Shown: positions 17,202 through 37,070 of the stretch, in pieces
Layout of the letters: every line of letters begins with the position of its first letter
Numbering within the stretch: position 1 is the first letter of the stretch
IMG/VR virus record: IMGVR_UViG_3300038345_000118
Coordinates: 1 to 64,000 of that record
Direction: 5' to 3' (one strand)
DNA: 64,000 bases
Source of the DNA: a virus
Lineage: Duplodnaviria > Caudoviricetes
Position numbers and translations under genes: made by a program
The notes under the pieces: generated by a model
What the model was told of the DNA's origin: nothing
Databases searched by the model: none
The model's input: the letters and a program-made list of their open reading frames with translations, nothing else

Positions 17202-17639
17202 CTATGCAGCCGGATTACAAATCCGTCTGAACGAATAAGTTTCTCCAAAGGTGATAACTCCGTTAGTTGATGGCGATTCCATCTGTGCCTTGACGATGGC
17301 TGTAACCTCCCATTCACGCAGTGGTATGCCGTGCTGTGAACACAACAGTTCGTCGTTTTGCTTAAAGCCTGCTGCTCTCCAGAAATCACCGGCCTTAATC
17401 CACACTTCTATAAGTGCAGGTTCACGTCGGCCGTCGCGGTTGGGGTAGAGTGAAGCGTCGCCGTAAGGTGGCATTCGCATAACGGAATCCCATACCCGGC
17501 GAAGTCTTGCCATATCCCGCGTCCATGAGCGAGCCGAAGCGTCTTCGATGGCTATCTGTTCGTACTTATCGTGGACGGCCTGTAAAAAGTCGTCCACATC
17601 GAACCGCATTATTTTTAACGTGCCGTAATAGTTTGCCAT
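17202..17639 (-). CDS. Hypothetical protein, C-terminal AA
   Basis: 145-aa ORF ending ICNPAA. Confidence 0.6.
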   Translation of the reverse strand: MANYYGTLKIMRFDVDDFLQAVHDKYEQIAIEDASARSWTRDMARLRRVWDSVMRMPPYGDASLYPNRDGRREPALIEVWIKAGDFWRAAGFKQNDELLCSQHGIPLREWEVTAIVKAQMESPSTNGVITFGETYSFRRICNPAA

Positions 17640-17695
17640 AATGATTTTGAGTTATTGATTAGATTTGTAAGATTTCTCGCCGTGAGGCGACTGGT

Positions 17696-18604
17696 TTACG
17701 CTGTTTGCAGATAGTTATACAATTCTGTGGCGGTCTTGTAGCAACCGTCGAGTTGGGGACGGCGCTTACCACGAGTACGGTAATACTGGCAGGTCTGTTC
17801 CTTGCCGTTGATGTTGGCAATAACCTGCTGCAGGTTATGCACGGTGCGCAGGTGGATAGCGATACCGTAGCGGCGGCAGAGGTCCACCACGTCGCATCCG
17901 TCAATACTCTCGCCGTTCTTGAACTTCTCGGCCTCCTGTGTCAGTCGCTCTTGCTCCTGGCGTTCTTCCTCGGCACGCTTGCGGGCTTCCTCCTCGGCCC
18001 GTTTGCGGGCTTCTTCCCTACGCTGGCGGTCTTCCTCCTCGCGTTCCTCCATTTTTATAGCACGGATTTCTTTCAGGCCGGAGAGAATCGGCGACTGCAC
18101 TTCCTCGTAGGCTCGGATGTCAGAGCATTTCACCCATGAAGATACGGAAAGTAAGTAGTTGTCGTAGTCCATCGTCAGTTTCAGACGCGCCAGAAGATTA
18201 TCACGGTCTTTCTTTCTGTCTTCCATGTTTTCCTCGTTCCATTTGCGCTCCTTGGCCTTGTAGTCATCACTGGCATCGGGATGTTCTGCAAGAAATTTCT
18301 GCCAGCGTATCTGTCCGTCTGCTTCAATCTCTGCGTCGGTTGGCTGCATACGTTCCAGCAAACTGGCACTCACAACGGTTATCATTGCAGCCACCTTGTC
18401 GCTCAGTTGGGCGTAGATGAAGTATTGCACATAGGTTCGGTAGCCCTCGTCGTGTTCCTCACGCTCATACCAGAGTGGAGTCTTCGCATGTTCGTTGCCA
18501 ATGTTGGGCAGCAGTTCACTGAGGTTTGTCAGTTCGATGTTGCGTCTCTTCGGCGTATTGCCGTCGGAGCCGACATAGTGGCACCAGAATTTCTTTGTAT
18601 TCAT
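17696..18604 (-). CDS. Hypothetical protein with charged coiled-coil segment
   Basis: 302-aa ORF; EEARKRAEEE repeat. Confidence 0.7.
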   Translation of the reverse strand: MNTKKFWCHYVGSDGNTPKRRNIELTNLSELLPNIGNEHAKTPLWYEREEHDEGYRTYVQYFIYAQLSDKVAAMITVVSASLLERMQPTDAEIEADGQIRWQKFLAEHPDASDDYKAKERKWNEENMEDRKKDRDNLLARLKLTMDYDNYLLSVSSWVKCSDIRAYEEVQSPILSGLKEIRAIKMEEREEEDRQRREEARKRAEEEARKRAEEERQEQERLTQEAEKFKNGESIDGCDVVDLCRRYGIAIHLRTVHNLQQVIANINGKEQTCQYYRTRGKRRPQLDGCYKTATELYNYLQTA

Positions 18605-18616
18605 AGTTCGTAAATG

Positions 18617-19375
18617 TTAGTGATTCATTCGTTTTTCTATATCTCGCTGTTCGGTCTTGTTGGCCCAGCGTGCCAGGCGACGACCGTTCTGTCCGTTGGC
18701 CTCACGGATATAACCGAGGTTCAGCAGACGGTTGTACTCAGACGTGACGAACTCCACCAATGGGCGGCGCATGTGAGGAGAACCTGTTCCGATATCGTCG
18801 AGGTCAATACGGCGGTTCTGTATGCAGATGCGGTTGCAGGCTGCATGTTCCACACTACCCTTATCCTTGTAAAGGTTCTTCCGCTTGGTGGTCAGCAGTT
18901 CCTTTAAAGTGGTGGCCAACCCTGACGGGAAGTATTCGCGGTACATTTTGCGTTCGTCCTCTTCGGAGGTAGTCACCAGCACATCACCGTAGTTGTCTGT
19001 CCAGCGATACTTGCATGATTGCATATTACGGAACATTTGTTCCAGACGGTCTATGTCATCGGCAATCACCAGTCCGCTGATGTCCTGCGGGTGGCAGTAG
19101 AGATACTGCGCACTCTTCTTTAGCTGCGGGCAGCAAGCGGGGCCGTAGTTCTCCTTACGAAGCGTCCATCCGTCGGCCATCAAAAGAGCAACTACCTCGT
19201 TGTAGAAGGCGCTGACAGCGTTCCCTCCTGCCTCTCGCGCCTCCTTGCTGTAGTCATAAAGTGCCTTATCATAGGCAGGTATGTTGATACGAAAATGTAC
19301 GTCTGACAGCTTCTGCCGTCCGTTTGCCTCATATTGTTTTACTTTCGGCCGCAGGTCGATTGTTGTTGTTGTCAT
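18617..19375 (-). CDS. Hypothetical protein
   Basis: 252-aa ORF in the train. Confidence 0.7.
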   Translation of the reverse strand: MTTTTIDLRPKVKQYEANGRQKLSDVHFRINIPAYDKALYDYSKEAREAGGNAVSAFYNEVVALLMADGWTLRKENYGPACCPQLKKSAQYLYCHPQDISGLVIADDIDRLEQMFRNMQSCKYRWTDNYGDVLVTTSEEDERKMYREYFPSGLATTLKELLTTKRKNLYKDKGSVEHAACNRICIQNRRIDLDDIGTGSPHMRRPLVEFVTSEYNRLLNLGYIREANGQNGRRLARWANKTEQRDIEKRMNH

Positions 19376-19393
19376 AGTCGTAATGTTTTAGAT

Positions 19394-19663
19394 TTAATAC
19401 TTCATGTTAGCATATTCCGGATGTCTTTGCCGGATAAGATAGGGGATATCTTGTATTTCGCGCATCTGAAGGTTTAGCTCGTCAATAGACGGTAACTGCC
19501 AGAACGGTTTGAAATAGATACTGATGTCGCGAGAGTTGGGGTAAGTCACGCCGTGCTTACCCCTTGCAACCCTCGTGGCTATTTTCTGTATGATGGAGTA
19601 TTTCTTGCATTCATCGCGGGCTTCTTTAACTTCCCACTTCCCAACTGTTATCTGTAAGTCCAT
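19394..19663 (-). CDS. Hypothetical protein
   Basis: Packed ORF. Confidence 0.55.
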   Translation of the reverse strand: MDLQITVGKWEVKEARDECKKYSIIQKIATRVARGKHGVTYPNSRDISIYFKPFWQLPSIDELNLQMREIQDIPYLIRQRHPEYANMKY

Positions 19664-20381: not shown

Positions 20382-20810
20382 TTAAAGTTCCAATAGGATG
20401 TCGTCAATGTCTCCTTCGTTCTCCCACCAGCCTTCGGGCAGGTCGTTGTCTTGGCCGTATTCTTCCAGCAGGTCGATCACGTGAGCATCGTCTATTCCAG
20501 TATTGACAGGCATGCGGTGTTTCATATTGTAGGTCACTTGCATACGAATAGCCACAGTCCTTTCAGTGCCCAACTGTTCACACACATAGTCGAGAGCAGG
20601 TTTCAGCGGATCAGCATCGGTATCATCCTCGCACTCGCTGACCTCGATAATTGAGTAGTCGGTGCAAGCGTCGATGTTGCTTGTGTACTGATAGGGATTA
20701 GCCTTGCAGCGTTCTTCCACCATCTGCTCGGCCTGCTCTGCTGTTTCTGCATCCACATAGATGCGCTTGGTGACGCGGAAATCCACGTCGATTGCAAATT
20801 GTTTAGCCAT
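20382..20810 (-). CDS. Acidic hypothetical protein
   Basis: 142-aa D/E-rich ORF. Confidence 0.6.
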   Translation of the reverse strand: MAKQFAIDVDFRVTKRIYVDAETAEQAEQMVEERCKANPYQYTSNIDACTDYSIIEVSECEDDTDADPLKPALDYVCEQLGTERTVAIRMQVTYNMKHRMPVNTGIDDAHVIDLLEEYGQDNDLPEGWWENEGDIDDILLEL

Positions 20811-20855: not shown

Positions 20856-23800
20856 TCACGCAGCCACTTTGACGGGCTGGTGAGGAGTTTCGCTTTCACG
20901 TAGTTCCTTCTCAATCTTACGGTCGAGAAGGGTGAGCTCGGTACGCAGTTTCATTAACTCGCTCTCCTTACCCCAGGTGAGGGTGAGGATTGACGAGAGC
21001 TGTTCTATGCGTACTCGGTTATCCTCCTTGCGGGTCTCCCATCCGTCGATAATCTCTGGAATGCGTTGGAGCACCTGTAAGGGATATTCAGCGGACAAGC
21101 GGGCAGAACTGCAGTTGAGTTTTCCGCTGTTGTTCTGGTAGATGAGACGGGAACCCTTCACAAAGAAGCGGTTCTCATAGATAGGATCACCCATCAGTTT
21201 GGCCGTGACCACCGTCTTCACCATCACGGGAAATCCGTAGATGCTTCCGACGGTCTTATACTGCTCGGGGGCAGTATGCTCGGTTTCGCAGATGTGCTGC
21301 AGTTCCTTGCCCATGGATTTGATGTCGGCATCCTTGCAACCGGCTATCTCTAAAGCATTCTCCACTGCACCGTCGGCTGTCAGACGGCGGGCCTTGTTGA
21401 ACCTGGCAAGGTCTTCGCGGGCATCCTGAATGCTGTGATCCAGTCGCTCGTTTTCGGCAATCATATCCGTGCGCTTCTGCTCCTGCTCCGCATGGTCTCG
21501 GAGAAAACTCTTGCGCTCGGCTTCCAGTCCGGCAATCTTTTTCTCCAGCTTGGCACGCTCCAGCAAATCGGTGTTGCCGGAGAGAATAGCCATATACTCA
21601 GAGAAATTCATGCCCGTGTTCTCGTCCATCGCTCCCTCATCGAGGGTACGGATGGAAAGCTGTCCGCGTTTCAACTGGTTAATAAACGTCTGCTTACAAT
21701 GTAAGAGATTGAACTTATAGCTGTCAAGGCTTCTCTCCACGGCGTAGATAATCACGTCCACCTTATTGTCGGCGTACAGCTTGGCAATCTCGTTACCCTT
21801 GCGGACGGCTCGTCCGTCACGCTGTTCCAAATCGGAGGGTCGCCACGGTGTATCGAGGTGATGCACCGCAACAATCCGCTGCTGAGCGTTGACACCCGTT
21901 CCGAGCATCGACGTACTGCCGAAGAGCACACGGATGTTACCCTTGTTCACCTCGTCGATCATCTTCTGCTTGGCCTTGTCACTCTTACACTCCTGAATGA
22001 AACGAATTTCAGAGGCAGGGATGCCGTACTCACTGATCAGCTTGTGCTTGATTTCCGAATAGACGTTCCAGCCCCCGTTGTTACCCTGCCACGTACTCAG
22101 ATCGGAGAACACCAACTGTGTGCCCTTCTGCTTGTCGTACTGACGGTAGTACTTGGCAATTTGCTTGGCGCACTGGCTTGCCTTGTTGTTGGGATGGTCG
22201 CCATACGCAGGGTCAATCATTCGCATATCAAGCGACATCTTACGGGCCTGATCGGTGGCGTAGAGCATCTTGGCCTTCTTCTGCTTGTCGGTTGGATTCT
22301 TAATACCAATCAGGCTGAAATCGCCATCCTTGGCAAACTTCATCAGCACCTTTATATATTCCTCCTGGTCGGGGGTAGGCTTGATGTTCATCAGCATGGC
22401 GTTCTTGGCGGGTCGCTCAATGCCCACATCCTCGGCAGTGCGGAAATCGGTAATCTCATTATAGAACATCGCCAGCTCAGGCACCTTGATAAAGTAACGG
22501 AAACGTTCCTTCAGTACTATTGAGTTGGTAATGCTGAACTCAAACTCCTGCGACTTCTTGGTGAAGATAGCGGCCCACGCATCGAAACAGGTGATACGCT
22601 GATCTGCCAAAGCATTTGGACGGAGATAGCGGAACAGGCTGTAAAGCTCCGTCAGCGAGTTTGTCACCGTGGTACCACTCAGGAACGTGGCTCCGAGGTC
22701 GCGGCCTGTGCGTTTCTGAATCGTGCGGATAGCCATGAGCAGGTTAAAGGCTCGCTTGCTCCCCTCTGTGTTGCCGATGCCGGCCACACGGTCGTGACGG
22801 GTGGTAAAGCCGAGGTTCTTGAACTGATGGCTCTCATCGACAAAGATATGGTCGATACCCATCATGCGGAAGTCCACGATGTCATCCTTCCTATTGCGCA
22901 TGCTGTTCTGCAGTTCACGTAACTTTGCCTCACGGTTGCGCTTCCTGGTTTCCAGTCCGCGACGCATCTTAGACGAGATGTCGTAGCCATATTCACCTAA
23001 GAGGTCAAGTGCATCTTCCAGCTGTTGCAGCTCGTCGCGCAGCAACTCCTCCTGTACCTCGTCACTCTGAGGAATGCGGCCAAACTGGTCGTGCGACATG
23101 ATGATGCAGTCGTAGTCGTTGTTCTTCGCATTGTTCAGGAACTCAATGCGGTTGGCTCCGCTGTAGTCGGCGGCTGTAGCAAACAATATCTTTGCATCGG
23201 GGTAGGCTGTGCGGTAGGTCTCGGCAATCGCACTGACGTTGGCCTTCAATCCGATAATCATCGGCTTGTGGCACATACCCAGTCGCTTCATCTCGTGTGC
23301 AGCAATACACATGATGAGCGTCTTGCCACTGCCTACCTCGTGGTCGCAGATACCGCCGCCGTTCAAGAGCAACATCCAAATGCAGTCCTTCTGTGAGTCG
23401 TACAGACGTTCAATGCCGTACTTGGCTTTCAGACCGACCATATCAAGACCGGGGAATGTCTGGTGACTGCCGTCGTACTTAGGTTTCACGAAACAGTTGA
23501 ACCGGCGGTTATAGACATCGGCCAGCTTATCGCGAAACGCCTTGGGCTGACGCTGCAGCCAGTCCTCATAACCCTGTCGGATTTCCTCAATCTTGGCAGC
23601 GGCCAGCTGTGTCTTCTCAGGGTCTTCCACCTTGATTTTGTCATAGTTGTCGGTATAGACATAGAATCCATCCTTGTCACGCAGATACTTCATCATCTGC
23701 GGCGTGGTGTTGTGCAGGGCATGTGTCAGCAGGTCCATGCCGTCAAGCTGCTTGGTAGCCTCACTGCTCACGCTGTACTGCGACCAGATCTTTTCGTTAT

Positions 23801-25742
23801 GATGGTCGGCACTGACGGCGTACTGGTCAATCTGCGGCTCGTACTTCACCGTTACTTTCACCTTGCCGGACCAATAACTGTTGTCCTTATCGTCGGGCAT
23901 CGAGAAAAACTCCGTGGCAAACTTGCTATACACATCGGCATCCACCCAGCGCTCACCGAGGTTGAAGTCCAACTGCTCGAAGGGGATAGGCTCTGGCACT
24001 GCCTCTCGCAGTGCCTGAAGTGAAGAGTGAAGAGTGAAGAGTGAAGAATCTTCACGATTACCATGTATCAGTTCCGGGTACTTCCGTTCAATGGCCTCTA
24101 TCTTCTCGATGACGTTGCCGCTGATGAACTTCGACTTAATTTCATATTCGCCTTCCAGGGGGTTATAGAACACCTCGCCTTGTAGCTCGCCAAGCAACTG
24201 CTCAGCATCCATGCCGGTCAGCGACTCCATATAACCGATGTGCGGCTCGCCGTACTCGTTCAGACTGGCGGCCAGGGCTTCCTTTGCGGTGTAGGTCTTA
24301 TCCTCTTCCTCGGTGGCAAAGGCAATAGGGCGGAGCATGATGTCGGCTTTCTGCCAACAGCCATCGGTCTTCACCTCAATGCCCAACAGTTCCTTCGCCA
24401 CGCGCTCCACCGTAGGCTGGTTCTTAGCGTCGTGCAGATAGCCGAACTCCTTCACAAAGTCATCGTAGAGCTTGTTCAGGTCGCGGCGAAGCTCCGCTTT
24501 CTCTATCTGCTCGTTCTGCTCCTGCTCGTACAACTGCGTGTAGCATTCCTGAATGGCCGTCAGCACCTTCTCCTTCTTGGTCAGGCGCTTCGCCTTGGGT
24601 TTGTTGGCGCTTGATGTCGTTGTAACGTTATTACGTGATGACGTTATAACGAGGTTTGCCGACAAGTCGGCTGCAAGCACTTTCTGCAAATCTTCAGCAA
24701 TGCCCTGCACACCGTCCTTATGCAGATAGGTAAACCCGGGCTTGCCGTAGGCATCGGTGTCAACCTTGCTGCTCGTGGCAATCACATGGTCGGGCTTCAT
24801 GGTGAAGTACAGGTTGGTGGGGCAGTCGTTGTCGGTATAGGCAGAGAGCAGCAGCGTCTCGTCGAGCGTCATCTCTCCCCTACCCTCTTCCTTCTGCAGC
24901 ACTAGCAGGTCAGTACCCACCTCCGTACCGTTGTCCTTGAACAGGTTGTTTGCCAGACGGTAGGCACCAATCAGGCGGGCACTCTTCAATGCCTCTGCCA
25001 GCTGCTCCGTGTCTCGGTTCAGATAATTGCTTGTGATGATGTAAGCCAGCAGACCGCCGTTACGCAGGCAGTCCAGACCTTTCAGCACATAGTAGCGGTG
25101 GATCATCCTTGCAGCATCACGGCGCACCTGATTGTCGCTGTTGCTATACGCAGGGTCGAACACCTGAATGTTACCAAACGGCACATTCGTGGTCACGAGG
25201 TCGAACTGTCCCAGGTCCTCGTTGGGGATAGTCTCGAAACCCTTGATGCGGATGTCAGAATAACGATAATGTCCGTACTTTGCATTCAGGATAACGCCTG
25301 TCAATAAATCTTTCTCGTAAGCCACCATGCGATGACAACCTTCACACACAGAAGGAGTTTGAAGAAAAACGCCCTTTCCTGCAGCAGGGTCAAGAACATT
25401 TGCCGTAGGCATTGCATCCCATAATGTCGTACTTATAGCAGCCACAAATTCCCATGGTGTATAGAACGCCGTCAGCGTAGATGCCTTCAATGATTGCATC
25501 CATGCCTTAAACTCGCGCTCATCCTTACTGTTGTCACGCAGCAGGTTATGAAGGCGCGTCGTATCGCAGAAGCAGTCGAGGTCGCTTGCTGCCCATGCTC
25601 CAGTGTCGAGCGGATTGAGCACGAAGCCCAAACCGCCAAAGCCGGTATATTTATTCAGTATGTCGTTGTCGCACTTGTCTGTTGTAAGTGCATGCTCTAA
25701 TGCCGCGATGTTATCGCGCAGTCTCTGTAATTTCGTTGCCAT
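20856..25742 (-). CDS. DarB-like N6-adenine methyltransferase / SNF2 helicase fusion
   Basis: VLDPAAGKGVF and TNVPFG methylase motifs; HEVGSGKT, DESHQF, GTGVNAQ and WRPSDLEQRDGR helicase motifs; same architecture as phage P1 DarB. Confidence 0.9.
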   Translation of the reverse strand: MATKLQRLRDNIAALEHALTTDKCDNDILNKYTGFGGLGFVLNPLDTGAWAASDLDCFCDTTRLHNLLRDNSKDEREFKAWMQSLKASTLTAFYTPWEFVAAISTTLWDAMPTANVLDPAAGKGVFLQTPSVCEGCHRMVAYEKDLLTGVILNAKYGHYRYSDIRIKGFETIPNEDLGQFDLVTTNVPFGNIQVFDPAYSNSDNQVRRDAARMIHRYYVLKGLDCLRNGGLLAYIITSNYLNRDTEQLAEALKSARLIGAYRLANNLFKDNGTEVGTDLLVLQKEEGRGEMTLDETLLLSAYTDNDCPTNLYFTMKPDHVIATSSKVDTDAYGKPGFTYLHKDGVQGIAEDLQKVLAADLSANLVITSSRNNVTTTSSANKPKAKRLTKKEKVLTAIQECYTQLYEQEQNEQIEKAELRRDLNKLYDDFVKEFGYLHDAKNQPTVERVAKELLGIEVKTDGCWQKADIMLRPIAFATEEEDKTYTAKEALAASLNEYGEPHIGYMESLTGMDAEQLLGELQGEVFYNPLEGEYEIKSKFISGNVIEKIEAIERKYPELIHGNREDSSLFTLHSSLQALREAVPEPIPFEQLDFNLGERWVDADVYSKFATEFFSMPDDKDNSYWSGKVKVTVKYEPQIDQYAVSADHHNEKIWSQYSVSSEATKQLDGMDLLTHALHNTTPQMMKYLRDKDGFYVYTDNYDKIKVEDPEKTQLAAAKIEEIRQGYEDWLQRQPKAFRDKLADVYNRRFNCFVKPKYDGSHQTFPGLDMVGLKAKYGIERLYDSQKDCIWMLLLNGGGICDHEVGSGKTLIMCIAAHEMKRLGMCHKPMIIGLKANVSAIAETYRTAYPDAKILFATAADYSGANRIEFLNNAKNNDYDCIIMSHDQFGRIPQSDEVQEELLRDELQQLEDALDLLGEYGYDISSKMRRGLETRKRNREAKLRELQNSMRNRKDDIVDFRMMGIDHIFVDESHQFKNLGFTTRHDRVAGIGNTEGSKRAFNLLMAIRTIQKRTGRDLGATFLSGTTVTNSLTELYSLFRYLRPNALADQRITCFDAWAAIFTKKSQEFEFSITNSIVLKERFRYFIKVPELAMFYNEITDFRTAEDVGIERPAKNAMLMNIKPTPDQEEYIKVLMKFAKDGDFSLIGIKNPTDKQKKAKMLYATDQARKMSLDMRMIDPAYGDHPNNKASQCAKQIAKYYRQYDKQKGTQLVFSDLSTWQGNNGGWNVYSEIKHKLISEYGIPASEIRFIQECKSDKAKQKMIDEVNKGNIRVLFGSTSMLGTGVNAQQRIVAVHHLDTPWRPSDLEQRDGRAVRKGNEIAKLYADNKVDVIIYAVERSLDSYKFNLLHCKQTFINQLKRGQLSIRTLDEGAMDENTGMNFSEYMAILSGNTDLLERAKLEKKIAGLEAERKSFLRDHAEQEQKRTDMIAENERLDHSIQDAREDLARFNKARRLTADGAVENALEIAGCKDADIKSMGKELQHICETEHTAPEQYKTVGSIYGFPVMVKTVVTAKLMGDPIYENRFFVKGSRLIYQNNSGKLNCSSARLSAEYPLQVLQRIPEIIDGWETRKEDNRVRIEQLSSILTLTWGKESELMKLRTELTLLDRKIEKELRESETPHQPVKVAA

Positions 25743-25979: not shown

Positions 25980-26018
25980 AACTTATGTTTTTTGAGTTTA
26001 TCGTTTTTAATTGTTTAT

Positions 26019-26758: not shown

Positions 26759-27340
26759 TCACGCTGCCATCCTTGCCAGCAGTGCTTGGCGCAACTGCTC
26801 AGCAAGCGTAAGAGGTTTTGCCGCAGGCATAGGCTTTACAATAGCCTTTGTCTTCGTGGCTGCCTTCTTTTTCCGTTCTCCCCTCGGGGAGTTAGAGGGG
26901 GTTTTTGCTTTTGTTTTCTTCACCTCGGGCAGCACCGCCCACCGTTCGCCGCCCTTGGCGCAGAAGCGCACCTTCTGTCTCATGGACGGGCAGTTCAGCT
27001 TGCAGAATCCTGAGGTGACGTCAAAGATATTGTCGAGGCGGTAGGAGAAGCGGAAGTTTCCGAACTCCATGCGTGTCTCCCACGTCTTCTTGCTGAAGCC
27101 CAAAAGTCCTCCGTCACCGGCGAACGTCGAGATGAAGACGTCCCAGTGCTCGCACAGCCCCATGTCCTCGATGATGATGCCCGGTGCGCTTTCGTAGCAC
27201 TTGTTCCCGTGCAGTCCCTGAAGGACTTCGCTCAGCCTAAACTCACCTTCGTTTGGGTTTCTGGTGCAGTGCTCCCACACCCATGCGCACTGCCGCAATA
27301 GCGACATGGCGATACGCATATTCAATTCCTGTTGTTCCAT
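26759..27340 (-). CDS. Hypothetical protein, C-terminal AA
   Basis: Ends TLAEQLRQALLARMAA. Confidence 0.65.
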   Translation of the reverse strand: MEQQELNMRIAMSLLRQCAWVWEHCTRNPNEGEFRLSEVLQGLHGNKCYESAPGIIIEDMGLCEHWDVFISTFAGDGGLLGFSKKTWETRMEFGNFRFSYRLDNIFDVTSGFCKLNCPSMRQKVRFCAKGGERWAVLPEVKKTKAKTPSNSPRGERKKKAATKTKAIVKPMPAAKPLTLAEQLRQALLARMAA

Positions 27341-28883: not shown

Positions 28884-28901
28884 AGCCGTTACACGTTTAA
28901 G

Positions 28902-29387: not shown

Positions 29388-29399
29388 AATTGTTACTCG

Positions 29400-29630
29400 T
29401 TAAAGATTATACATCGGTATCTCGTCGCTGGCTGTCATACGACCTTCCATCAACTGAAAGAAGATAGTCTCATAGCGTTCATGCTCGCTACCCTCCGAGC
29501 ACTTCATGCCCTCGTAGTAGAACTCCAGCGCCTTGCGCCGCGTCATCTTCTCCGTTTTGCGGTAGCAGGTCACCGTTACCTTCTCATTCAGTTTTCTTGC
29601 ACTAAAATCTGCCATAGTCTTAAACCTCAA
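29400..29630 (-). CDS. Small phage hypothetical protein
   Basis: KVTVTCY...FYYEGMKCSEGSEHERY. Confidence 0.6.
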   Translation of the reverse strand: MRFKTMADFSARKLNEKVTVTCYRKTEKMTRRKALEFYYEGMKCSEGSEHERYETIFFQLMEGRMTASDEIPMYNL

Positions 29631-30021
29631 AGTTAGTTACATTCTTAACACTCTCTATGTGTTTCAGCACAGCCGCCTTCACCTTCGGCCATTCATCCAT
29701 AGCCAGTTTAAATCCATCCACGTTTTCACGTGGGATATACCAATAGGGGTTGGTCAAGTACGACTGCGTATAGTCTTTATCGTCATCATACAGTTTTCCG
29801 TCTTTCACCTTCTTGGTGGTCCCATAGTGGCGAAAGTAGAAACACGGTTCCTTGCGACACCAGAACTCCAGCCTGTCGCATCGGTGCCCATAGATGAAGC
29901 CATAGGCAAACTCATACTCGAAAGGCACGTCACAGTCGGCCTTCTTAAACTGCTCACTAATCCAGTTCAGCATCTTGGTCATGTTCTCCAGCAGATGCTT
30001 TCTCAATGTCATTTCGTCCAT
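29620..30021 (-). CDS. Hypothetical protein
   Basis: Packed ORF. Confidence 0.6.
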   Translation of the reverse strand: MDEMTLRKHLLENMTKMLNWISEQFKKADCDVPFEYEFAYGFIYGHRCDRLEFWCRKEPCFYFRHYGTTKKVKDGKLYDDDKDYTQSYLTNPYWYIPRENVDGFKLAMDEWPKVKAAVLKHIESVKNVTNFEV

Positions 30022-30074
30022 AACTTTCGTTTTTTGAATGATTTTCTATTAATTTCCGATAATTTCTTTCCAGT

Positions 30075-30446
30075 TCATGCAGCCATTTCGGCGAGATAGG
30101 TTTCAGGATAGGCCCATTCGAGTTTCCAGAAGAAATACTCTATCGGGATAACCTCGCCCGTGTCGCAGTCCACTTCCTCGTTTACCAGAGCCTCCAGGTC
30201 TTCACGGGTATAAGCGCTTACCTGATCTTGTGGATAGCAACGTTCGCCATCAATCATCACCTCTTCGGCCTCACAGAATCCGTTCTCAGGAATGTAGCAC
30301 ACAGCCTTGGGGTCGTTCCTAAAAGCCTTTTCGTCCTTGAACACATAGCCATAGCCCAGCCCGTCGATGCTGAAATATTCGTTGGTGAAGTAAGCCGCAC
30401 CGTCCTTGACGATGCGCTTACCTGCCTGCTGATATTCTTTTGCCAT
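30075..30446 (-). CDS. Hypothetical protein, C-terminal AA
   Basis: F..LEWAYPETYLAEMAA. Confidence 0.65.
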   Translation of the reverse strand: MAKEYQQAGKRIVKDGAAYFTNEYFSIDGLGYGYVFKDEKAFRNDPKAVCYIPENGFCEAEEVMIDGERCYPQDQVSAYTREDLEALVNEEVDCDTGEVIPIEYFFWKLEWAYPETYLAEMAA

Positions 30447-30505
30447 AGTTATTGCCCGTCATGCCGATAGCGCAGCGTTAAATTCTAAACTCTAAACTCT
30501 AAACT

Positions 30506-31918
30506 TCAAGCCGCCTTTGACAAAAGGCGCTTGATGTCCTCTGGGATGTCCTCACCTGCCATCACCTTCTGCAGCATAGCGGCCACATCCTCCTTGGTAT
30601 AGCAATCTGTTGCAACGGTGTTCTCACGCTTAGCCTTGCGCTCCTCGGCCTTAGCCTTATATTCGGCACGCTGTGCCTCACGCTCCTTACGGTGGGCGTC
30701 GAGCGTGCCGTTCACGTCCTCGACTGCCTTGCTGATAGCGGCAGCGTCGCCATTGTTCCATGCCTCGCACAACTGCTTGGCTGCATTCACATAGACAGGA
30801 CCGAATACGAGCATATAGGTCTTGTTGCCCTTCTTGTCGCGCTCCCATGTCTTCGAGCCGTGAAGCTCGGGGCCTGACTGATAGCGGGCATCGTCCTCGG
30901 TAAATCCCTTGATACGGGCGCAGGTCTTGCCCTTCTTGTTCGTGTAGGTCTCATACACGAGTGGAGCGTTAGCGTTAACGTTATCGTTGGCCTTTGCCTT
31001 TGGCTTCTCGCTCTTAGTATTCTTGACCTTCGGCTTCTCGCTCTTGGGCTTCTCGCTCTTGGGCTTCTCGGCCTTGGGCTTCTCGGCCTTAGTAGCGTTA
31101 GCGTTATCGTTAACGTTAGCGTTAACGTTATCGTTATCGTTACCCTTCGGCTTCGGTTTCTCCAGCTGATCACAGATAGCCACATGCTTGCCAGCCCTGA
31201 TGAGCTTGGGCAGATAGGAGTCGAGAGCATGATGCGGGAATCCGGCCATCTGCACGCCGTCGTCACCCTTCGTGAGCGTAATGCCCAGCACCTCGGCTAC
31301 ATCCGCAGCGTCCTGCTCGTAGGTCTCATAGAAGTCTCCGCAGCGGAACAACAGGATTCTCTCCGGATGCTTCGCCTTCAGGTCGCGGAACTGCTTCATC
31401 ATGGGGTTATTCACTTGTGCGTTCTGCACGTTAGCACTCTCGTTGTTGTTGTTCTTTGTTTCCATAACTTGTTCGTTTGAAGTGTTATTCGTATTATTGT
31501 TCTCGGTCATCATGTCGGCCATCTGCTTACGGAACGACTCCGTATAGCCGTACTTGGCGATATTGGCGATAGCCGCATTCAGTTTCTGCCACTCGCGGTG
31601 GTCAAATAGCCATGCGATAGCCTCTTTGGCCATCTCCAGATTGACTTTGTACTGCTCCAGCTTCTTCACGTTGTTCTTCGTGGCCGTCGGCTCGATGTCC
31701 ACCCATGTGGTTGATGTCAGCGGGTTATTCGAGAAGTCGAATAAGCAACCGTAGCCAATGCCCGACGTCCACCCAGGATGATAGTTAGCACGAAATCCTC
31801 TACCCTTCGTGTAATTCACACTCACTCTAAGCGTGTTGAACTCCTGCTCTCCATTTCCGGCCGTCTTATACGGAGCGATAGCCACATAAAAATCCATGTG
31901 TTCGATTGTCTTTGCCAT
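30506..31918 (-). CDS. Multidomain protein with a MutS domain I (mismatch-recognition) module and low-complexity linker
   Basis: [33 protein letters not shown]...LGITLT...[28 protein letters not shown]; no MutS ATPase domain. Confidence 0.85.
30969..31143 (-). repeat. In-frame tandem repeats (15-bp [10 protein letters not shown] units and 6-bp N-D/V/A units)
   Basis: CTTGGGCTTCTCG(G/C) units and GTTA(G/T/A)C hexamers. Confidence 0.8.
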
Positions 31919-31990
31919 AGTTGTATTTTTTTAATGCTTAATTCTTAATGCTTAATTAATGCCCTCCCCTCGGGGAGGGATGGGAGGGGG

Positions 31991-32959
31991 TCATGCTGCA
32001 ATAGCCGTGATGCCGTCGTTCTCTTTTGCCTGACGCTCACCCTGTATGTAGCGGGCAGCTTTCTCTGCACGGCTGCTGGCCCACACAATCATCTTCGGGT
32101 CGTTCTTCAACTGTTTCAGCCAGCCTTGAATATAGGCCACGCTATTCTTGAAAGCCTTGTCGCAGTCCATACCGCAGACGTTCACTAACATGGCAGCACC
32201 CATCTCGGCCACCAGTTCCTCGCGGCTGTACGCCTCGTTGCCGAACATAGCTACACCCGTCTGCTCGCTCTTGCGGTTGCATCGGCTCTCGATAAGCGTA
32301 GAGTGCGTCAGCTCATGGAAGGCGGTGGAATAGTATTCCTCCACATCCTGATACTGGCTCATCATCGGTACCACCACCTCGTCGGCAGCAGGCGAGAAAT
32401 ACGCTCGGTTGCTCGGTTTATTGTTGATGAACTTCAAATGCGGTTCAGCAGCCAGATAGCCTTGTATAGTACGCTCTGCCTTATCCACGGGCTGCAACGT
32501 CACCGTGGGCACATCGACTGTCAGCTTAGACGCGATACCCTCGCAGTCGTCGATGTGGAAGACGTGATAGAACTTCAGGATAGGCGCATAATACTCTTGG
32601 AACACCGTCACCGTCATCGTGTCGCCATCCTCCGTTTCCTCCTTCTCTTTCTTCATCACCGTGCGGGAATAGAAGCACACGATCCCGCTCTGTGCGCCCT
32701 TCTTGATAGAGCCGCCCAACGCTTTCACCTGCTTAAACGTCAGATACTCGCCAGGCTTGCCCAGCAGCATCTGGTTAATAAACGAATAGGGCTTGCGAGT
32801 GGTGTACGAGATAGCCCCTTCCTGCGTACCGCTCCACGGGCGACGCCACGGGATAAGACCCTTCTCCATTTGTTCGACAATCTTATCCGTTACCATTTGG
32901 TAAACGTTAAACACCTTCTTCGTGCCACCCTTGGTGGACTTCGTTTTCTTTGTTGCCAT
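31991..32959 (-). CDS. ardC: ArdC-family antirestriction / ssDNA-binding zincin protein
   Basis: VTDKIVEQMEKGLIPWRRPW, YSFINQMLL, FHELTHST (HExxH), YSREELVAEMGA. Confidence 0.9.
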   Translation of the reverse strand: MATKKTKSTKGGTKKVFNVYQMVTDKIVEQMEKGLIPWRRPWSGTQEGAISYTTRKPYSFINQMLLGKPGEYLTFKQVKALGGSIKKGAQSGIVCFYSRTVMKKEKEETEDGDTMTVTVFQEYYAPILKFYHVFHIDDCEGIASKLTVDVPTVTLQPVDKAERTIQGYLAAEPHLKFINNKPSNRAYFSPAADEVVVPMMSQYQDVEEYYSTAFHELTHSTLIESRCNRKSEQTGVAMFGNEAYSREELVAEMGAAMLVNVCGMDCDKAFKNSVAYIQGWLKQLKNDPKMIVWASSRAEKAARYIQGERQAKENDGITAIAA

Positions 32960-32983
32960 AATTGTAAATTTTTTGAGTTAAAC

Positions 32984-33490
32984 TTATGCTGCTTCCAGCT
33001 CTACTTCACCCCACCAGCCATCCACGCTGCGCAGATCGCTCTCATAGAGCACGCTCAGGCAGTTAAAGAACAGCTCTGCCACCGCACGATGAGCGGCCTC
33101 GTTTTCTATCTGATAGAGCACGCTCTTAAAGAAACTGAACATTGACAGGCGGAACTTTTTCTTATCCATCACGTTCTCTACCTTGTGAAAGATAATGCCG
33201 TTATCGGAGGCATAGCCCTCACGCTGGATGAGTGCGCCCTTCTTACGATAAGATTCAAACACATCGTCGTACTGCTCCGTTTCAGGCATTTCACCGTCAC
33301 CGTATTGCTCGTTCACGCTCACTACGTTCAGCGCGTAGGCATGTTCAAACTCCTTGCGCACATTGTCGATAAACCACTTGTGGCTGTCGCGCTTCGCTTC
33401 CTCATAGCCACACATCAGGCCAGCGGCCTTGATGTACTCCACTTTGCTGATAATAAAACTGCTCATAGTCGTTTGTCGTTTAGATTTCAC
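32984..33490 (-). CDS. Hypothetical protein, C-terminal AA
   Basis: Ends WWGEVELEAA. Confidence 0.65.
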   Translation of the reverse strand: MKSKRQTTMSSFIISKVEYIKAAGLMCGYEEAKRDSHKWFIDNVRKEFEHAYALNVVSVNEQYGDGEMPETEQYDDVFESYRKKGALIQREGYASDNGIIFHKVENVMDKKKFRLSMFSFFKSVLYQIENEAAHRAVAELFFNCLSVLYESDLRSVDGWWGEVELEAA

Positions 33491-33809
33491 ACATACTGCG
33501 CACCATTTCCTTCAGTTCTGCCTCAGTGGTCACGCCACGACGGCGGAACTCCTTAGTAAGAGATGCCGTAGTCAGGTACGTCGGCATGGCGTAGTATTCC
33601 TCGGGATAGAGCACCTTGATAACCTTGTACTCATCCTCGGCCCAGTCATAGTCGCCATTGTCCTCGGCATCCAGCGCGGCGTCCAGCCCCACGTTCAGGC
33701 GGTAGCCTCGCTCGCTCATAGTAACCACGCTGGCCTCGCACTTAAAGCCCAGCTCCTTTGCCGTGTCATTGATGAACTTGGCAAACACTTTCGATACTTT
33801 CACTTTCAT
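33480..33809 (-). CDS. Hypothetical protein
   Basis: Packed ORF. Confidence 0.6.
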   Translation of the reverse strand: MKVKVSKVFAKFINDTAKELGFKCEASVVTMSERGYRLNVGLDAALDAEDNGDYDWAEDEYKVIKVLYPEEYYAMPTYLTTASLTKEFRRRGVTTEAELKEMVRSMCEI

Positions 33810-33822
33810 GGTTTACAGAGTT

Positions 33823-34077
33823 TTAGTCCTCAAAATAGCCGTCGATAATAGCGAACGAAGCCTGTTCGCCCTCGCCAGTAGTCATGCGCACCTCGTACTC
33901 GTAGAAACCCTTGTCGCGGTTCATGCGGTCGATACGCTCAGTCACTTTGCCACCGCAGACGTCACACATACGCTCTACGTCGCTGTTCAGTTCTGCCTTG
34001 GCCTTGTCGTAGTTCTTGAAGTAGCGGTCGTGAATCCGACCGCCCACATTCTTTCGATAGATTGCAAACATAGTCAC
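33823..34077 (-). CDS. Hypothetical protein
   Basis: Packed ORF. Confidence 0.55.
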   Translation of the reverse strand: MTMFAIYRKNVGGRIHDRYFKNYDKAKAELNSDVERMCDVCGGKVTERIDRMNRDKGFYEYEVRMTTGEGEQASFAIIDGYFED

Positions 34078-34403
34078 GCTGCTTTAGATAGTCCTTGTTC
34101 TTCACGTTCATCGTAGGGAATATAGAGCAGGTCGGCCTTGATGAGTGCGTCGATAGCCACACGGGCACACTTGCAGGCCCATTCGTCACGCGGATCGTAC
34201 CAGCCCTTGCGCTCATAGGAGGCCAGCACCTTCAGGTACTCAATAGCCAGTTCTCCACGCTGCCCCACCAGATAGCGGTGGTCGCGAGCCATAGCCCGCG
34301 CCACGTCGCGCTTGTGATAGAGGCCGCCATTGATAAAGTTACTCTCTGTCTTCACGAACTCCTGTTCGTGCTCGTTAAGATTCAGTTCTCCGTCGTACAT
34401 CAT
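34074..34403 (-). CDS. Hypothetical protein, C-terminal AA
   Basis: Ends GLSKAA. Confidence 0.6.
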   Translation of the reverse strand: MMYDGELNLNEHEQEFVKTESNFINGGLYHKRDVARAMARDHRYLVGQRGELAIEYLKVLASYERKGWYDPRDEWACKCARVAIDALIKADLLYIPYDEREEQGLSKAA

Positions 34404-34451
34404 AGTCGTAAAGTTTTAAATTCTTCACTCTTCATTCTTCACTCTTCACTT

Positions 34452-34628
34452 TCATGCAATAAGTCCGTCAAACGGGTCCCATGTGTATTCGATAGCACAC
34501 ACGTCCATGCCTTCGGCCTGCATGTCGGCCATAGCCTGCTTCTCGGCTGCGCTGATAGATGAAACACTTGCACCGGTTGCTGCTGCCAGTGCGATAACGA
34601 TTGCCTTAGATGATTTCTTTGTCTTCAT
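34452..34628 (-). CDS. Small hypothetical protein (58 aa)
   Basis: Manual translation MKTKKSSKAIVIALAAATGASVSSISAAEKQAMADMQAEGMDVCAIEYTWDPFDGLIA. Confidence 0.5.
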   Translation of the reverse strand: MKTKKSSKAIVIALAAATGASVSSISAAEKQAMADMQAEGMDVCAIEYTWDPFDGLIA

Positions 34629-34696
34629 AACTTTTGTGATTTTTTGAGTTTATACTAATGCTTAATTCTTAATGCCTAATGCTTAATTGCCACTTT

Positions 34697-34909
34697 TTAG
34701 GCAGCGGTTTTATAGTCGCCTTTAGAAGATTCTTCACTCTTCACTTTTAACTCTTCACTTTCTGACTCGTCAGCGTAAGCAAAACAAACCGCAGCGCAAC
34801 AAATCAGCGCAAGGGAATACAGAATCTGAATAGGGTTCACATCGATGCCCGTAGCCACGAGCATGCCCAGGGCGAACAGGATGCCGCCAACGATAGATAA
34901 TTTTTTCAT
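34697..34909 (-). CDS. Small two-helix membrane protein, C-terminal AA
   Basis: Two hydrophobic segments; ends DYKTAA. Confidence 0.6.
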   Translation of the reverse strand: MKKLSIVGGILFALGMLVATGIDVNPIQILYSLALICCAAVCFAYADESESEELKVKSEESSKGDYKTAA

Positions 34910-34924
34910 TGTTTTGTCCTCCGA

Positions 34925-35104
34925 TTAAAAATCAAATGCTGTTTCGATAAATTTCTCTAAGCGGTCTTTCCGCCATTTGCAACCAAGATCACGGGCGAAG
35001 GCAAATAGTATGCGCTTCACTTGCGCCTCCGTATAGGTACGAGCGTCCCGCAGTTCCTGAACTTTAGGACGCATTTGTAGAATCATTGCTTTTGTTTCTG
35101 CCAT
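34925..35104 (-). CDS. Small hypothetical protein (59 aa)
   Basis: Manual translation MAETKAMILQMRPKVQELRDARTYTEAQVKRILFAFARDLGCKWRKDRLEKFIETAFDF. Confidence 0.5.
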   Translation of the reverse strand: MAETKAMILQMRPKVQELRDARTYTEAQVKRILFAFARDLGCKWRKDRLEKFIETAFDF

Positions 35105-35124
35105 AGGAATATGGTTTTATAGAT

Positions 35125-35361
35125 TTAACATGGATAACACCCCATAGCCAGAGGCCAACCTTCAGGACCATAGCCCCCATAGCAATAGAGCTGTTCCCAT
35201 ACTTCATAGGTACTTTTGTAATAATCACCACCACGCTGCTGCTTAGAATAAAGCGTAGGGATAGGCATACCATGTGCCATACAATAGTCGCTCACGGCCT
35301 TTGGCTCGCGAACTTCAAAATAGACTTCTGATTTCTTTGTTGTCATAATTTTGTCCTCCAT
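35125..35361 (-). CDS. Small hypothetical protein
   Basis: ORF directly downstream of the structured non-coding region. Confidence 0.5.
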   Translation of the reverse strand: MEDKIMTTKKSEVYFEVREPKAVSDYCMAHGMPIPTLYSKQQRGGDYYKSTYEVWEQLYCYGGYGPEGWPLAMGCYPC

Positions 35362-35375
35362 ATTTTAGTGAATAA

Positions 35376-36409
35376 TAGTAGAAGAGGGCGGACTCGAACC
35401 GCCTGATGCCCACGTGGGGCGTCCAGCCCTGACTCTCTCGGCTATCGTATGCGTGTGCTGCGTCGGCCACGCCTGACACCTGGTGTCCTGCGTTTGGATT
35501 CGTTGCCCATAGGCCATATTGTCAGCTCACGCAAATAGCGGGAAAAGTCGTTTACACTCTCCTCCTCCGTTTTATCTTCAAAATCTCGGATACACTTTAC
35601 TTTAATCTGTCCCCCTCGTTTGTGTCCGACCCGAAACAGGCCGTTAGATAACACGCTCATGCCGCTTGAAAACCGGCTGCACATGAAACGAGTACAGCAC
35701 ACTCACTGGCCACTCGCGCTCTACCCACCCAGGGGGCCTGGCGCTCATAGCCCTTCGTGCGAAGGACAAGATATTGAAGTTCGTCGCGGTTTTTTCTTCC
35801 TGAGCCCCGCCCCTATGTGTGCATAGGTATTGTCCGCCGCTTGCAAAGTTTTATGCGGATAGGATAGAACCCCACCCGGCGAGACTCACTTTCGGACCCG
35901 GCTGCATCGTCCGCCTCGTGAGCGCCTATAAAAACGCCTTCGACTTCCTGCTCTCGCCTTCCTTGGATAGTCTTTAATTATAACCCTTCTGCCTTCTCGC
36001 CTGGGGCGGTTTTGCTTGAGTTCGTCACCTCCTTGCAACCTACCCCCTGCGCCCTCCACCGGGAGGGCATAGACAGTTCGTTATCTCGTGCGCCGAAACG
36101 CCTACCTAACTATCCGGTCCCAGATCGCTAACTATCCCGGGGCCTTGCGGCCTGCCTTTAGCTCTCTGCCCCTTTGCATTTAAGAGAGTGGGGGTACACC
36201 CGAGGTTTTCCGGCTATCCTTCTGCCTGCCTTTGCTTTTACTCCCTGGCCTTGGGAGGATCTTTTGCTCCCCCTTGCCCTGAAAACCGGGCTTTATAGTG
36301 GAGGATCCGGGGGCCTTGAAAACCGGGCCGATCCGGGCAAAATGTTTTTTAGTGGGGGCAGGGGGTATCGATCCCCCTTGCGCTCCTTGCGCCCCCTGGC
36401 CTTGCGGCC
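35376..36409 (-). ncRNA. Candidate large (~1 kb) structured non-coding RNA bracketed by tRNA-like minihelices
   Basis: No convincing ORF; many hairpins (GGCC-GCAA-GGCC twice, GCCCTCC-CGGT-GGAGGGC, CCTATG-CACA-CATAGG); T-arm plus acceptor-like stem ending ACTA at both ends. Confidence 0.55.
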
Positions 36410-36410
36410 G

Positions 36411-37070
36411 TTATGCTGCAAACAATAGGGCGGCGGCCTCTGCCTCTGTTATTGTGCCGGCCTCCACTTGTTTTTTAAGATCCTGGGCTTTCTTTGCAAA
36501 CTCCTTGGCCTTGTCTGCATAGGCCTTGCGCTCCTGACTCTTGGCCTTGCGCTCTGCCTTGCGCTCTGCCTTGCGCTCTGCCTTCTCTTTTGCCTTGCGC
36601 TCCTTGTCTTGCTCCTTGTCGATAGCTGCGGCGTATTTTTCAACAAGCCCCAGACGGGCGGCGGCAGCATCTATAACGGAGTTATCACTCCAACAACTTG
36701 CAAGCGTACCAATATAATATGTACCTGCAAAGTGGATCAAAACGTGATCGGCGTCAGGTGTAAAACTTGGATCAAGATAGAAAGCCGTAGTATCAGTTAC
36801 GGCAACAAGAGACGTAACCGGGCGGCCGTTAAAAGCATATATAGAACTCCACCAAAAACCGGCGCCGTCAACGAAGGCCGCATTTAAACGGGAATAAAGA
36901 TCTTTAATGTTTTCGTTACTGTAACCTTCTACGCCCTTGGCCTCCTTGTCTCTGCCCTGGGCTACCTTATTCAGGTGCCGGAAAATGTAACCGGGGTTAC
37001 TGTTGATCACCTTGTTTTCATTCTTTGCACCCTTTTTAACCTGGGCAGTGGTTTTTACTTGCTTATTCAT
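36411..37070 (-). CDS. First gene of the train; hypothetical protein with basic KAER-repeat helix, C-terminal AA
   Basis: 219-aa ORF downstream of a TAACTTTG promoter. Confidence 0.7.
   Translation of the reverse strand: MNKQVKTTAQVKKGAKNENKVINSNPGYIFRHLNKVAQGRDKEAKGVEGYSNENIKDLYSRLNAAFVDGAGFWWSSIYAFNGRPVTSLVAVTDTTAFYLDPSFTPDADHVLIHFAGTYYIGTLASCWSDNSVIDAAAARLGLVEKYAAAIDKEQDKERKAKEKAERKAERKAERKAKSQERKAYADKAKEFAKKAQDLKKQVEAGTITEAEAAALLFAA

Follow-up and report, generated by a model that had tools for sequence, protein, structure and literature searches.

Ala-Ala C-termini shared by unrelated proteins of one gene train in a putative Bacteroidales phage-plasmid are candidate ssrA-like degrons

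Background

A single gene train of a viral genome raises the question of why ten of its proteins should end in the same two residues, Ala-Ala, and whether these ends act as degradation signals encoded by the element itself. The window analysed here is a stretch of 64,000 nucleotides which, with a further 22 kb, makes up a contig of 86,148 bp. This contig carries plasmid replication and partition genes (Rep3_C and ParA/AAA_31) as well as genes for a tape-measure protein, an S49 peptidase, an amidase and a tyrosine integrase. Such a mixture of plasmid maintenance and virion functions points to a phage-plasmid, and by its Rep_3, ParA and integrase genes the element looks temperate and plasmid-like.

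The first-pass annotation of this DNA treated C-terminal Ala-Ala as an established ClpX determinant, and the literature bears this out, as ClpXP recognises the ssrA tag mainly through its terminal Ala-Ala-COO- and natural proteins with Ala-Ala ends are ClpXP substrates (PMC7652416). Two variants of this tag, LVA and AAV, also function in degradation, with graded strength (PMC11003136). In mycobacteriophages, C-terminal ssrA-like tags on the BPs repressor and on the integrases of such phages set the choice between lysis and lysogeny (PMC4557955; PMC9635641). Tags of this kind on single phage proteins are therefore already known; their use across an operon would be a new variation.

Results

Ala-Ala ends are confined to the gene train

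The train and its ten Ala-Ala-ending proteins are as follows, with the basis of each assignment in brackets.

17202..37070, minus strand: co-oriented gene train of approximately 28-31 ORFs, containing all ten Ala-Ala-ending genes
17202..17639, minus strand: 145-aa protein, end ...RICNPAA (ORF translation)
20856..25742, minus strand: 1628-aa DarB-like methyltransferase/helicase, end ...PVKVAA (phrog_10089, DarB-like antirestriction, E = 8e-258)
26759..27340, minus strand: 193-aa protein, end ...LLARMAA after a Lys-rich hydrophilic stretch (ORF translation)
30075..30446, minus strand: 123-aa protein, end ...YLAEMAA (ORF translation)
30506..31918, minus strand: 470-aa MutS domain I (MutS-I) protein, end ...IKRLLSKAA (PF01624, E = 5e-29)
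31991..32959, minus strand: 322-aa ArdC-like protein (ArdC-N and zincin metallopeptidase), end ...ENDGITAIAA (PF08401, PF18818)
32984..33490, minus strand: 168-aa protein, end ...GEVELEAA (ORF translation)
34074..34403, minus strand: 109-aa protein, end ...EEQGLSKAA (ORF translation)
34697..34909, minus strand: 70-aa protein, hydrophobic at the N-terminus and acidic in the tail, end ...GDYKTAA (ORF translation)
36411..37070, minus strand: 219-aa Lys-rich protein, end ...AAALLFAA (ORF translation)

Translation of these ten minus-strand ORFs reproduces exactly the ends that had been reported for them, in each case a free C-terminal Ala-Ala followed by a stop codon. The accompanying claim that no such ends lie outside the train also held, with a greedy ORF call over the 86,148-bp contig finding no other; among all six-frame ORFs of at least 50 aa (n=484) there were only four further Ala-Ala ends, all in shadow ORFs inside longer genes. 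The inside-outside comparison proposed at that stage gives 10/31 for ORFs of the train and 0/95 for the remaining ORFs of the contig (Fisher p = 2.3e-7). The frequency of Ala-Ala ends in 79 Bacteroidales chromosomal loci was 4/1114 ORFs (0.36%), and the binomial test, which used a baseline of 0.8%, gives a probability of 4e-14 for at least 10 in 31. When compared with one another by blastp (E <= 0.01), the ten proteins showed no detectable similarity, so that paralogy and repeated DNA are not the explanation. The same enrichment is found in the syntenic trains of loci L011-L017 and L018-L021 and of G001:C31 (23.3-43.0 kb), a contig of a related phage. Chance, common ancestry of the ten genes or an ORF-calling artefact could draw only on the small sample from a single window; against them stand the binomial probability, the lack of paralogy and the recurrence of the pattern in independent distant relatives and in the 120 best MutS-I homologs, and we consider these explanations refuted.

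The terminus is conserved while its surroundings change

The reading in the first-pass annotation would have been refuted by homologs that did not conserve the Ala-Ala ends, and the comparison came out otherwise, with homologs conserving the ends strongly. Ala-Ala is kept by the ArdC, DarB-like and three further families, both across the syntenic trains and in a 110-kb contig that is only distantly related, while the non-Ala-Ala families of the trains remain without it. In five ortholog pairs between G000 and G001:C31 (32-62% identity) Ala-Ala is kept in all, for which the naive chance is approximately 2e-4, and the residues at -3 and -4 change. The Ala codons also differ among orthologs (GCC GCT, GCG GCT, GCC GCA, GCG GCG), as do the stop codons. 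This variation of the -3 and -4 residues and of the Ala codons argues for selection on the protein terminus.

Among the individual families, the DarB-like orthologs within trains end in Ala-Ala in 4/4 cases, with KVAA in L011-L013; the 62%-identical ortholog of G001:C31 has the end IQQAA. The family at 26759 has RMAA in 7/7 orthologs and LKQAA in the 32%-identical G001:C31 ortholog, and that at 34697 has Ala-Ala in 4/4 members (KTAA, EDAA, EDAA, KKAA) and an HKDAA end in the 41%-identical G001:C31 ortholog. Seven of eight members of the 32984 family end in LEAA or LDAA, the most distant in DTA. One further member is available for the 30075 family in the fetched loci (end ...LLEMAA) and for the 36411 family (L011 310-1005, end ...AELLAA), and the 34074 protein had no ortholog in the fetched loci. 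Searches of the 17202 protein against Pfam, PHROG and NCBIfam gave no match; its conservation is shallow, the NPAA end being shared by its only close homologs, two proteins at 88-96% identity.

The MutS-I and ArdC families allowed deeper comparison. Among the 120 best MutS-I homologs, with identity down to approximately 35%, 105 end in Ala-Ala, and the exceptions end in TA, VA, AV, IA, EA or MA. ArdC orthologs in trains keep Ala-Ala in 11/11 cases with differing -3 and -4 residues (AIAA, AKAA, SMAA). In the wider ArdC family 10/150 representatives have such an end, each on a hydrophilic extension; the extensions run 10-42 residues beyond the last conserved helix (approximately 15 in the window protein) and include unrelated sequences such as ...KGKKAA, ...GDQTAA and ...NGEEAA. 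Ala-Ala on unrelated ArdC extensions is, judging from these alignments, a convergent gain. The Ala-Ala ends as a whole are evidently genome-encoded C-terminal tags under selection, carried by about one third of the anti-defence and establishment train proteins of this apparent Bacteroidales phage-plasmid lineage.

The same comparisons bear on whether GCN GCN stop is a nucleotide- or translation-level feature, acting in termination or re-initiation or as an RNA or DNA motif. In its favor, TGA is the stop codon in 6/10 of the window Ala-Ala genes against 4/29 (p = 0.009), GCC is avoided as their last codon, and longer spacers with heptamer repeats follow several of them. The avoidance of GCC is generic, however: across all ORFs, here as in Bacteroidales chromosomes, last codons are depleted in third-base C, and the TGA bias is absent from the distant relative (3/8). 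As orthologs keep Ala-Ala while codons and stops vary, and nothing is common to the flanking sequences or to the distance to the next start, this account is largely refuted and highly improbable.

Tail features compared with the ssrA tag

Free C-terminal Ala-Ala is common to the train tails and to the ssrA tag and ClpX C-motif-1 degrons (...LAA-COOH, with LVA and AAV variants). The ssrA tag ends in ALAA in the host lineage, and Ala or Val is likewise the last residue of the rare MutS-I exceptions (VA, AV, TA, IA and others). The ssrA tag is added by tmRNA, whereas in the train the two Ala codons belong to the ORFs themselves, each with an ordinary stop codon after them; a tmRNA-added tag was rejected on this ground. 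The SspB-type upstream motif is absent from the train tails.

Leu at -3 of the ssrA tag makes a modest contribution to ClpX binding. The train tails, whose candidate degron role is read from sequence, usually have Lys, Met or an acidic residue there instead. In the window the -3 residue is nonpolar in five of ten tails (V, M, M, I, F; the rest P, K, E, K, T), and over 49 distinct tails the counts are K 14, M 7, E/D/Q 15 and L 3. With a nonpolar residue in only half of the window tails, and with Lys the most frequent residue across families (followed by Met, Glu, Asp and Gln), many of the tails may bind ClpX only weakly. The -5 residue is hydrophobic in 56% of Ala-Ala tails and in 34% of other ORF ends.

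A buried Ala-Ala end is insufficient as a degron. Most of the window tails are preceded by hydrophilic, low-complexity stretches, and in an AF2 model of the MutS-I protein (mean pLDDT 67, medium confidence) a long single helix leads to the tail, itself a short terminal helix, with the last helix outside the folded domains. On the basis of composition and this one model, the tails may be accessible.

A matching tag and ClpX in a related host

A related phage contig is carried by the Bacteroidaceae MAG G001, which has the tmRNA tag GNNNFALAA and a clpX gene, likely with clpP just upstream. Six E. coli ClpX residues are reported as Ala-Ala-COO- contacts (PMC7652416), and all six (Y153, V154, T199, V202, R228, H230) are identical in the aligned G001 ClpX. 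By sequence, the lineage hosting this relative of the window phage has both a matching tag and matching ClpX pore residues.

Discussion

The explanation that we favor, with moderate confidence, is that the tails are genome-encoded ssrA-like C-degrons giving short protein lifetimes. In this model the axial pore of ClpX would take hold of the free Ala-Ala-COO-, the protein would be unfolded starting at its C-terminus, and the chain would pass on to ClpP. The train is probably expressed early, and the tagged proteins would have a short lifetime set by the host and be gone soon after train transcription stops. The expected benefit would be transient action of the DarB-like, ArdC-like, MutS-I and further train proteins. 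The first-pass annotation had proposed such hard-coded turnover for establishment and anti-defence proteins; the conserved ends, the genuine ClpX determinant and the fit of the G001 tag and ClpX lend the degron part partial support, but a recognisable anti-defence or DNA-binding function is found in only 3/10 of the proteins.

The tails could alternatively be docking tags or, as the first-pass annotation had also suggested, sorting signals, recognized by a reader other than a protease, which is the main rival and a possible though rather unlikely one. Candidate readers include a virion-packaging factor, the DNA co-transfer route proposed for polyvalent-protein domains and the ArdC-like zincin peptidase encoded in the train. 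Phage P1, for comparison, takes DarB and further Dar proteins into its particles for injection. The conservation and enrichment statistics would be the same whatever reads the terminus, and the frequent Lys, Glu or Asp at -3, in place of Leu, is compatible with one. To our knowledge, however, the only readers of a two-residue Ala-Ala-COOH are AAA+ protease pores; the tails lack a common charge or longer motif, no structural or late gene of the contig has an Ala-Ala end, and no packaging partner was found there.

The signature domains of the train belong to the 'polyvalent protein' pool, which lends the docking account some further support. In passages of their paper, Iyer, Burroughs, Anand, de Souza and Aravind (2017) describe the co-occurrence of ArdC-N with zincin MPTase, MutS-I and DarB-like methylase/helicase, all of which are in the train, place MutS-I outside MutS in Bacteroidetes and Firmicutes elements, usually alongside ArdC-N, and propose that polyvalent-protein domains travel with DNA into the new cell (PMC5512222). 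ClpX is not mentioned in the text of that paper, and those passages contain no shared Ala-Ala terminus or degron. Polyvalent proteins fuse their domains in one polypeptide, whereas the ArdC-like, MutS-I and DarB-like proteins here are separate genes; a search for longer fused forms of the C-terminal part of the MutS-I protein found none, which is weak evidence.

A further alternative, which we regard as improbable, is that the many tails jointly load or titrate ClpXP rather than acting on each protein. The dosage of early proteins might then reflect how much protease capacity the host has, or the multiplicity of infection, by analogy with integration-dependent immunity in mycobacteriophages; or competition might spare further ClpXP substrates, for instance abortive-infection antitoxins. 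The approximately ten co-expressed substrates of one operon and the temperate, plasmid-like appearance of the element would suit such a role. In BPs, the frequency of lysogenisation is set by how the repressor is proteolysed through its tag (PMC4557955), and the integrase escapes proteolysis at low protease or high multiplicity (PMC9635641). Titration nevertheless presupposes the degron reading, and as a purely inferential proposal it is not separated by sequence from per-protein turnover.

If the tails are degrons, the element sets the duration of anti-restriction and DNA handling in protein sequence and not by transcription alone. This would account for the clearance of potentially harmful proteins (a predicted DNA methylase/helicase, ssDNA-binding protease and mismatch-binding module) after the element has settled in as a plasmid or prophage. 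A hydrophilic extension ending in Ala-Ala-COOH would then help to pick out genes for transient establishment and anti-defence functions among the many uncharacterised ORFs of elements in gut Bacteroidales, host ClpXP status would be predicted to affect phage and plasmid establishment, and genetic work in Bacteroides would gain a natural set of degradation tags of differing strength. More speculatively, and with low probability, operon-wide tails might be a general mobile-element strategy in which the host protease that reads ssrA sets the lifetime of establishment and anti-defence proteins. A load of approximately ten substrates may sense or sink ClpXP and bias establishment, lysis/lysogeny or abortive infection, or the tails may address an unknown non-proteolytic Ala-Ala-COOH receptor.

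C-terminal alanines also serve as a degradation signal in eukaryotic Ala-tail C-degrons. In bacterial ribosome quality control, Ala-tailing by RqcH provides a comparable signal, cited for ClpXP (PMC7652416). Both kinds of Ala-tail are added after stalled translation, whereas the train tails are templated and stand on ordinary full-length proteins. A closer likeness is integration-dependent immunity in the mycobacteriophages BPs and Brujita (repressor gp33-136, integrase), in which a phage-encoded ssrA-like tag and a host protease set protein lifetime with regulatory consequences. There the tag is on one or two regulatory proteins and is removed by integration. Here there is no sign of tag removal, and the tails are found on approximately ten unrelated proteins of one Bacteroidales operon and in more than 35 family lineages across relatives.

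Ala-Ala ends within one gene train

On the evidence of sequence, many unrelated proteins encoded in one train of co-oriented minus-strand genes (17202-37070) carry a selected C-terminal Ala-Ala tag. The first-pass annotation had named ten such C-termini, and every one proved correct on translation; they belong to the ORFs starting at 17202, 20856 (DarB-like), 26759, 30075, 30506 (MutS-I), 31991 (ArdC-like), 32984, 34074, 34697 and 36411. It had also held that no ORF outside the train ends in this way, and a greedy ORF call over the whole 86,148-bp contig, of which the window makes up the first 64 kb, gave no other. Among six-frame ORFs of at least 50 aa, 14 of 484 end in Ala-Ala, comprising the ten train genes and four shadow ORFs within longer genes. 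The enrichment that the annotation had proposed to test was confirmed both by comparison of ORFs inside and outside the train (10/31 versus 0/95, Fisher p = 2.3e-7) and by a binomial test with a generous baseline of 0.8% (probability 4e-14). Paralogy of the ten proteins was ruled out, as no similarity is detectable among them.

The chromosomal baseline is 4 Ala-Ala ends in 1114 ORFs (0.36%) from 79 Bacteroidales loci. These loci came from a MutS-I alignment search of genome contigs, which returned mostly chromosomal mutS because the LFRCGDFY motif is common to both; L093 was the only true relative among the loci returned. Over all 80 fetched loci, L093 included, 3.7% of 1149 ORFs end in Ala.

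A nucleotide-level or chance origin of the Ala-Ala ends is essentially excluded. The Ala-Ala genes hardly ever encode their final Ala by GCC, owing to a generic termination-context bias against third-base C. At last sense codons, C in the third position is depleted both over all ORFs in the contig (9% versus 32%) and in Bacteroidales chromosomal ORFs (16% versus 29%; loci L022-L101), and GCC avoidance was rejected as a special signal since this depletion is generic to last codons. TGA stops terminate 6 of the 10 Ala-Ala genes in the window versus 4 of 29 other train ORFs (p = 0.009), and a TGA preference was rejected as a component of the motif, the figure being 3 of 8 in the distant relative G001:C31, a 110-kb contig belonging to a Bacteroidaceae MAG (G001). 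No common sequence follows the stop codons of the Ala-Ala genes.

Tandem arrays of 3-5 heptamers occur in the spacers of the train and elsewhere in the contig. The units are mostly GTGAAGA/TCTTCAC, with GAGTTTA, GCATTAA and AGCATTA also present (minus-strand reading), and the arrays could be protein-binding or regulatory repeats.

Heptamer arrays of the contig
30479-30505, 31931-31956, 34422-34454, 34656-34687: intergenic arrays just after stop codons
24019-24047, 34731-34759: arrays within genes
43311-43338, 55777-55797, and 82011-82038 in whole-contig (G000) coordinates: other arrays

Conservation in homologs and related trains

Conservation of the ends in homologs, on which the first-pass annotation had staked its reading, is borne out in the MutS-I family and likewise in other families. 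Among the best 120 MutS-I homologs, ranging from 93% down to ~35% identity, 105 end in Ala-Ala and the remaining 15 in TA, VA, AV, IA, EA or MA. Seven metagenomic loci (L011-L017) have a train order in common with the window (ArdC, MutS-I and, further along, DarB-like) and contain 5-10 plus-strand ORFs ending in Ala-Ala, for example 10 of 31 in L012; such ends also occur in the more distant trains of L019 (10/44), L020 (7/29) and L018 (4/41). Family clustering revealed that the state is family-specific, with non-Ala-Ala families never showing it, and that it is held by 12/12 MutS-I (minimum identity 27%), 11/11 ArdC, 7/8 of the 32984 family, 7/7 of the 26759 family, 4/4 of the 34697 family and 4/4 DarB-like proteins. 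Within these families the residues at positions -3 and -4 from the C-terminus vary (AIAA, AKAA, SMAA; KTAA, EDAA, KKAA), as do the Ala and stop codons. Selection on the protein thus maintains the Ala-Ala ending.

The structural genes of G001:C31 match those of the contig at 45-70% identity. Eight of its 145 ORFs end in Ala-Ala, seven of them inside the equivalent train (23.3-43.0 kb), and the orthologs of DarB-like (62% identity), 26759 (32%), MutS-I (46%), ArdC (36%) and 34697 (41%) all do so. The chance of these five keeping the ending is ~2e-4 if tails diverge like the rest of the protein. TraG (TIGR03783) was not found in G001.

In the wider ArdC family, 10 of 150 representatives at 37-80% identity to the query end in Ala-Ala and 35 in Ala. 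The Ala-Ala always lies on a hydrophilic extension past the last conserved helix, so the tag does not belong to the ArdC fold and was acquired more than once.

In the trains of relatives, the ArdC and MutS-I genes are closely followed, on the downstream side, by reverse-transcriptase genes:

L015 11371-12972: reverse transcriptase, RVT_1 Pfam match
L018 12786-14402: reverse transcriptase, RVT_1 Pfam match
G001:C31 29724-31340: reverse transcriptase, assigned from its size and similar tail

The G001:C31 copy ends in SWTKAA and the others in WTEK or AATE, which looks like an Ala-Ala end gained within one family. A different Ala-terminal motif is also present in the train. The small protein at 34452-34628 (-) belongs to a family of 58-78 aa, with orthologs in L012, L019, L020 and L021, whose conserved end is DPFDG followed by two hydrophobic residues and Ala (LIA, MLA, FCA, FIA).

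The element and its probable host

The contig encodes a Rep_3-type initiator and ParA together with a tape-measure protein, S49 peptidase, amidase and tyrosine integrase, and this gene content gives it the appearance of a tailed, temperate phage that also has plasmid functions. A DarB-like methylase/helicase, an ArdC-like protein and a MutS domain I protein are also encoded. The host is likely a member of the Bacteroidales, since gene starts lack Shine-Dalgarno sequences and all relatives found were in Bacteroidales metagenomes or MAGs.

Megablast against phage and plasmid collections found no relative of 26000-37100, and related-locus searches of IMG/VR with the MutS-I protein or ORF 26759 as query gave no match. 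The same search with ArdC returned 8 phage loci, none syntenic, with Ala-Ala on only 3 closely related ArdC homologs. Pfam, PHROGs and NCBIfam gave no function for seven of the Ala-Ala proteins, nor did the ESM Atlas for ORF 26759. Just outside the train, a 465-aa ORF (38609-40006, -) matches transposase phrog_506 (E = 6e-76). Within the train, the protein at 20382-20810 (-) shows weak DpnD/PcfM-like similarity (E = 0.004, short of the Pfam cut-off), and that family is otherwise seen in conjugative elements.

Candidate readers of the tag

The repressor gp33-136 of mycobacteriophage BPs carries an encoded ssrA-like tag that sets lysogenisation frequency (PMC4557955), and integrases of such mycobacteriophages likewise bear ssrA-like tags (PMC9635641). 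Whereas single proteins are tagged in those phages, here the tag is found on many unrelated proteins from the same train. The open-access literature searched gave no description of an operon-wide set of Ala-Ala ends on establishment genes, whether of phages or of plasmids.

Of the elements of the ssrA tag, the terminal Ala-Ala-COO- matters most, and ClpXP substrates include other cellular proteins with Ala-Ala ends (PMC7652416). ARAGORN identified a tmRNA with tag GNNNFALAA in G001, which also encodes ClpX, with an ORF of ClpP size directly upstream. Alignment with E. coli ClpX (PDB 8e91) showed that Tyr153, Val154, Thr199, Val202, Arg228 and His230, the six residues that a cryo-EM study reports to contact Ala-Ala-COO- (PMC7652416), are all identical. 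The tag variants LVA and AAV remain functional with graded strength (PMC11003136), and the few MutS-I homologs that end in VA or AV instead fit with this.

The best-supported reader, with a somewhat better than even chance of being the right one, is the host ssrA-tag protease system, ClpXP first. The main rival, which we consider unlikely, is a non-proteolytic Ala-Ala reader acting in virion packaging or co-transfer with the DNA, as Iyer et al. (PMC5512222) propose for the ArdC-N/MPTase/MutS-I domain pool. A collective effect of the tails on ClpXP capacity is more improbable still, and itself presupposes a degron. With ClpXP as the reader, the tagged proteins of a presumably early-expressed train would be degraded rapidly in a ClpXP-dependent manner, so that anti-restriction and DNA-handling proteins would act transiently; the element may then persist as a plasmid.

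Tail shape and accessibility

The 49 distinct tails compared, which represent ~37 family lineages, have Lys at position -3 in 14 cases, Glu, Asp or Gln in 15, Met in 7 and Leu in 3, and position -5 is hydrophobic in 56% versus 34% of other ORF ends. The frequent Lys and acidic residues at -3 suggest weaker ClpX binding than with the Leu of ssrA. Hydrophilic, low-complexity stretches precede most of the Ala-Ala tails in the window. In the MutS-I model (AF2, mean pLDDT 67), a short helix made up of the final ten residues follows a long single helix and lies clear of the folded domains, a predicted position that fits an accessible tag and does not prove one.

A search gave no longer, fused form containing the C-terminal part of MutS-I. 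The same model of 30506-31918 (-) contains a confident, largely beta N-terminal domain (~residues 1-140) and a C-terminal domain (~320-390), neither of recognised family, which flank MutS domain I with disordered linkers between.
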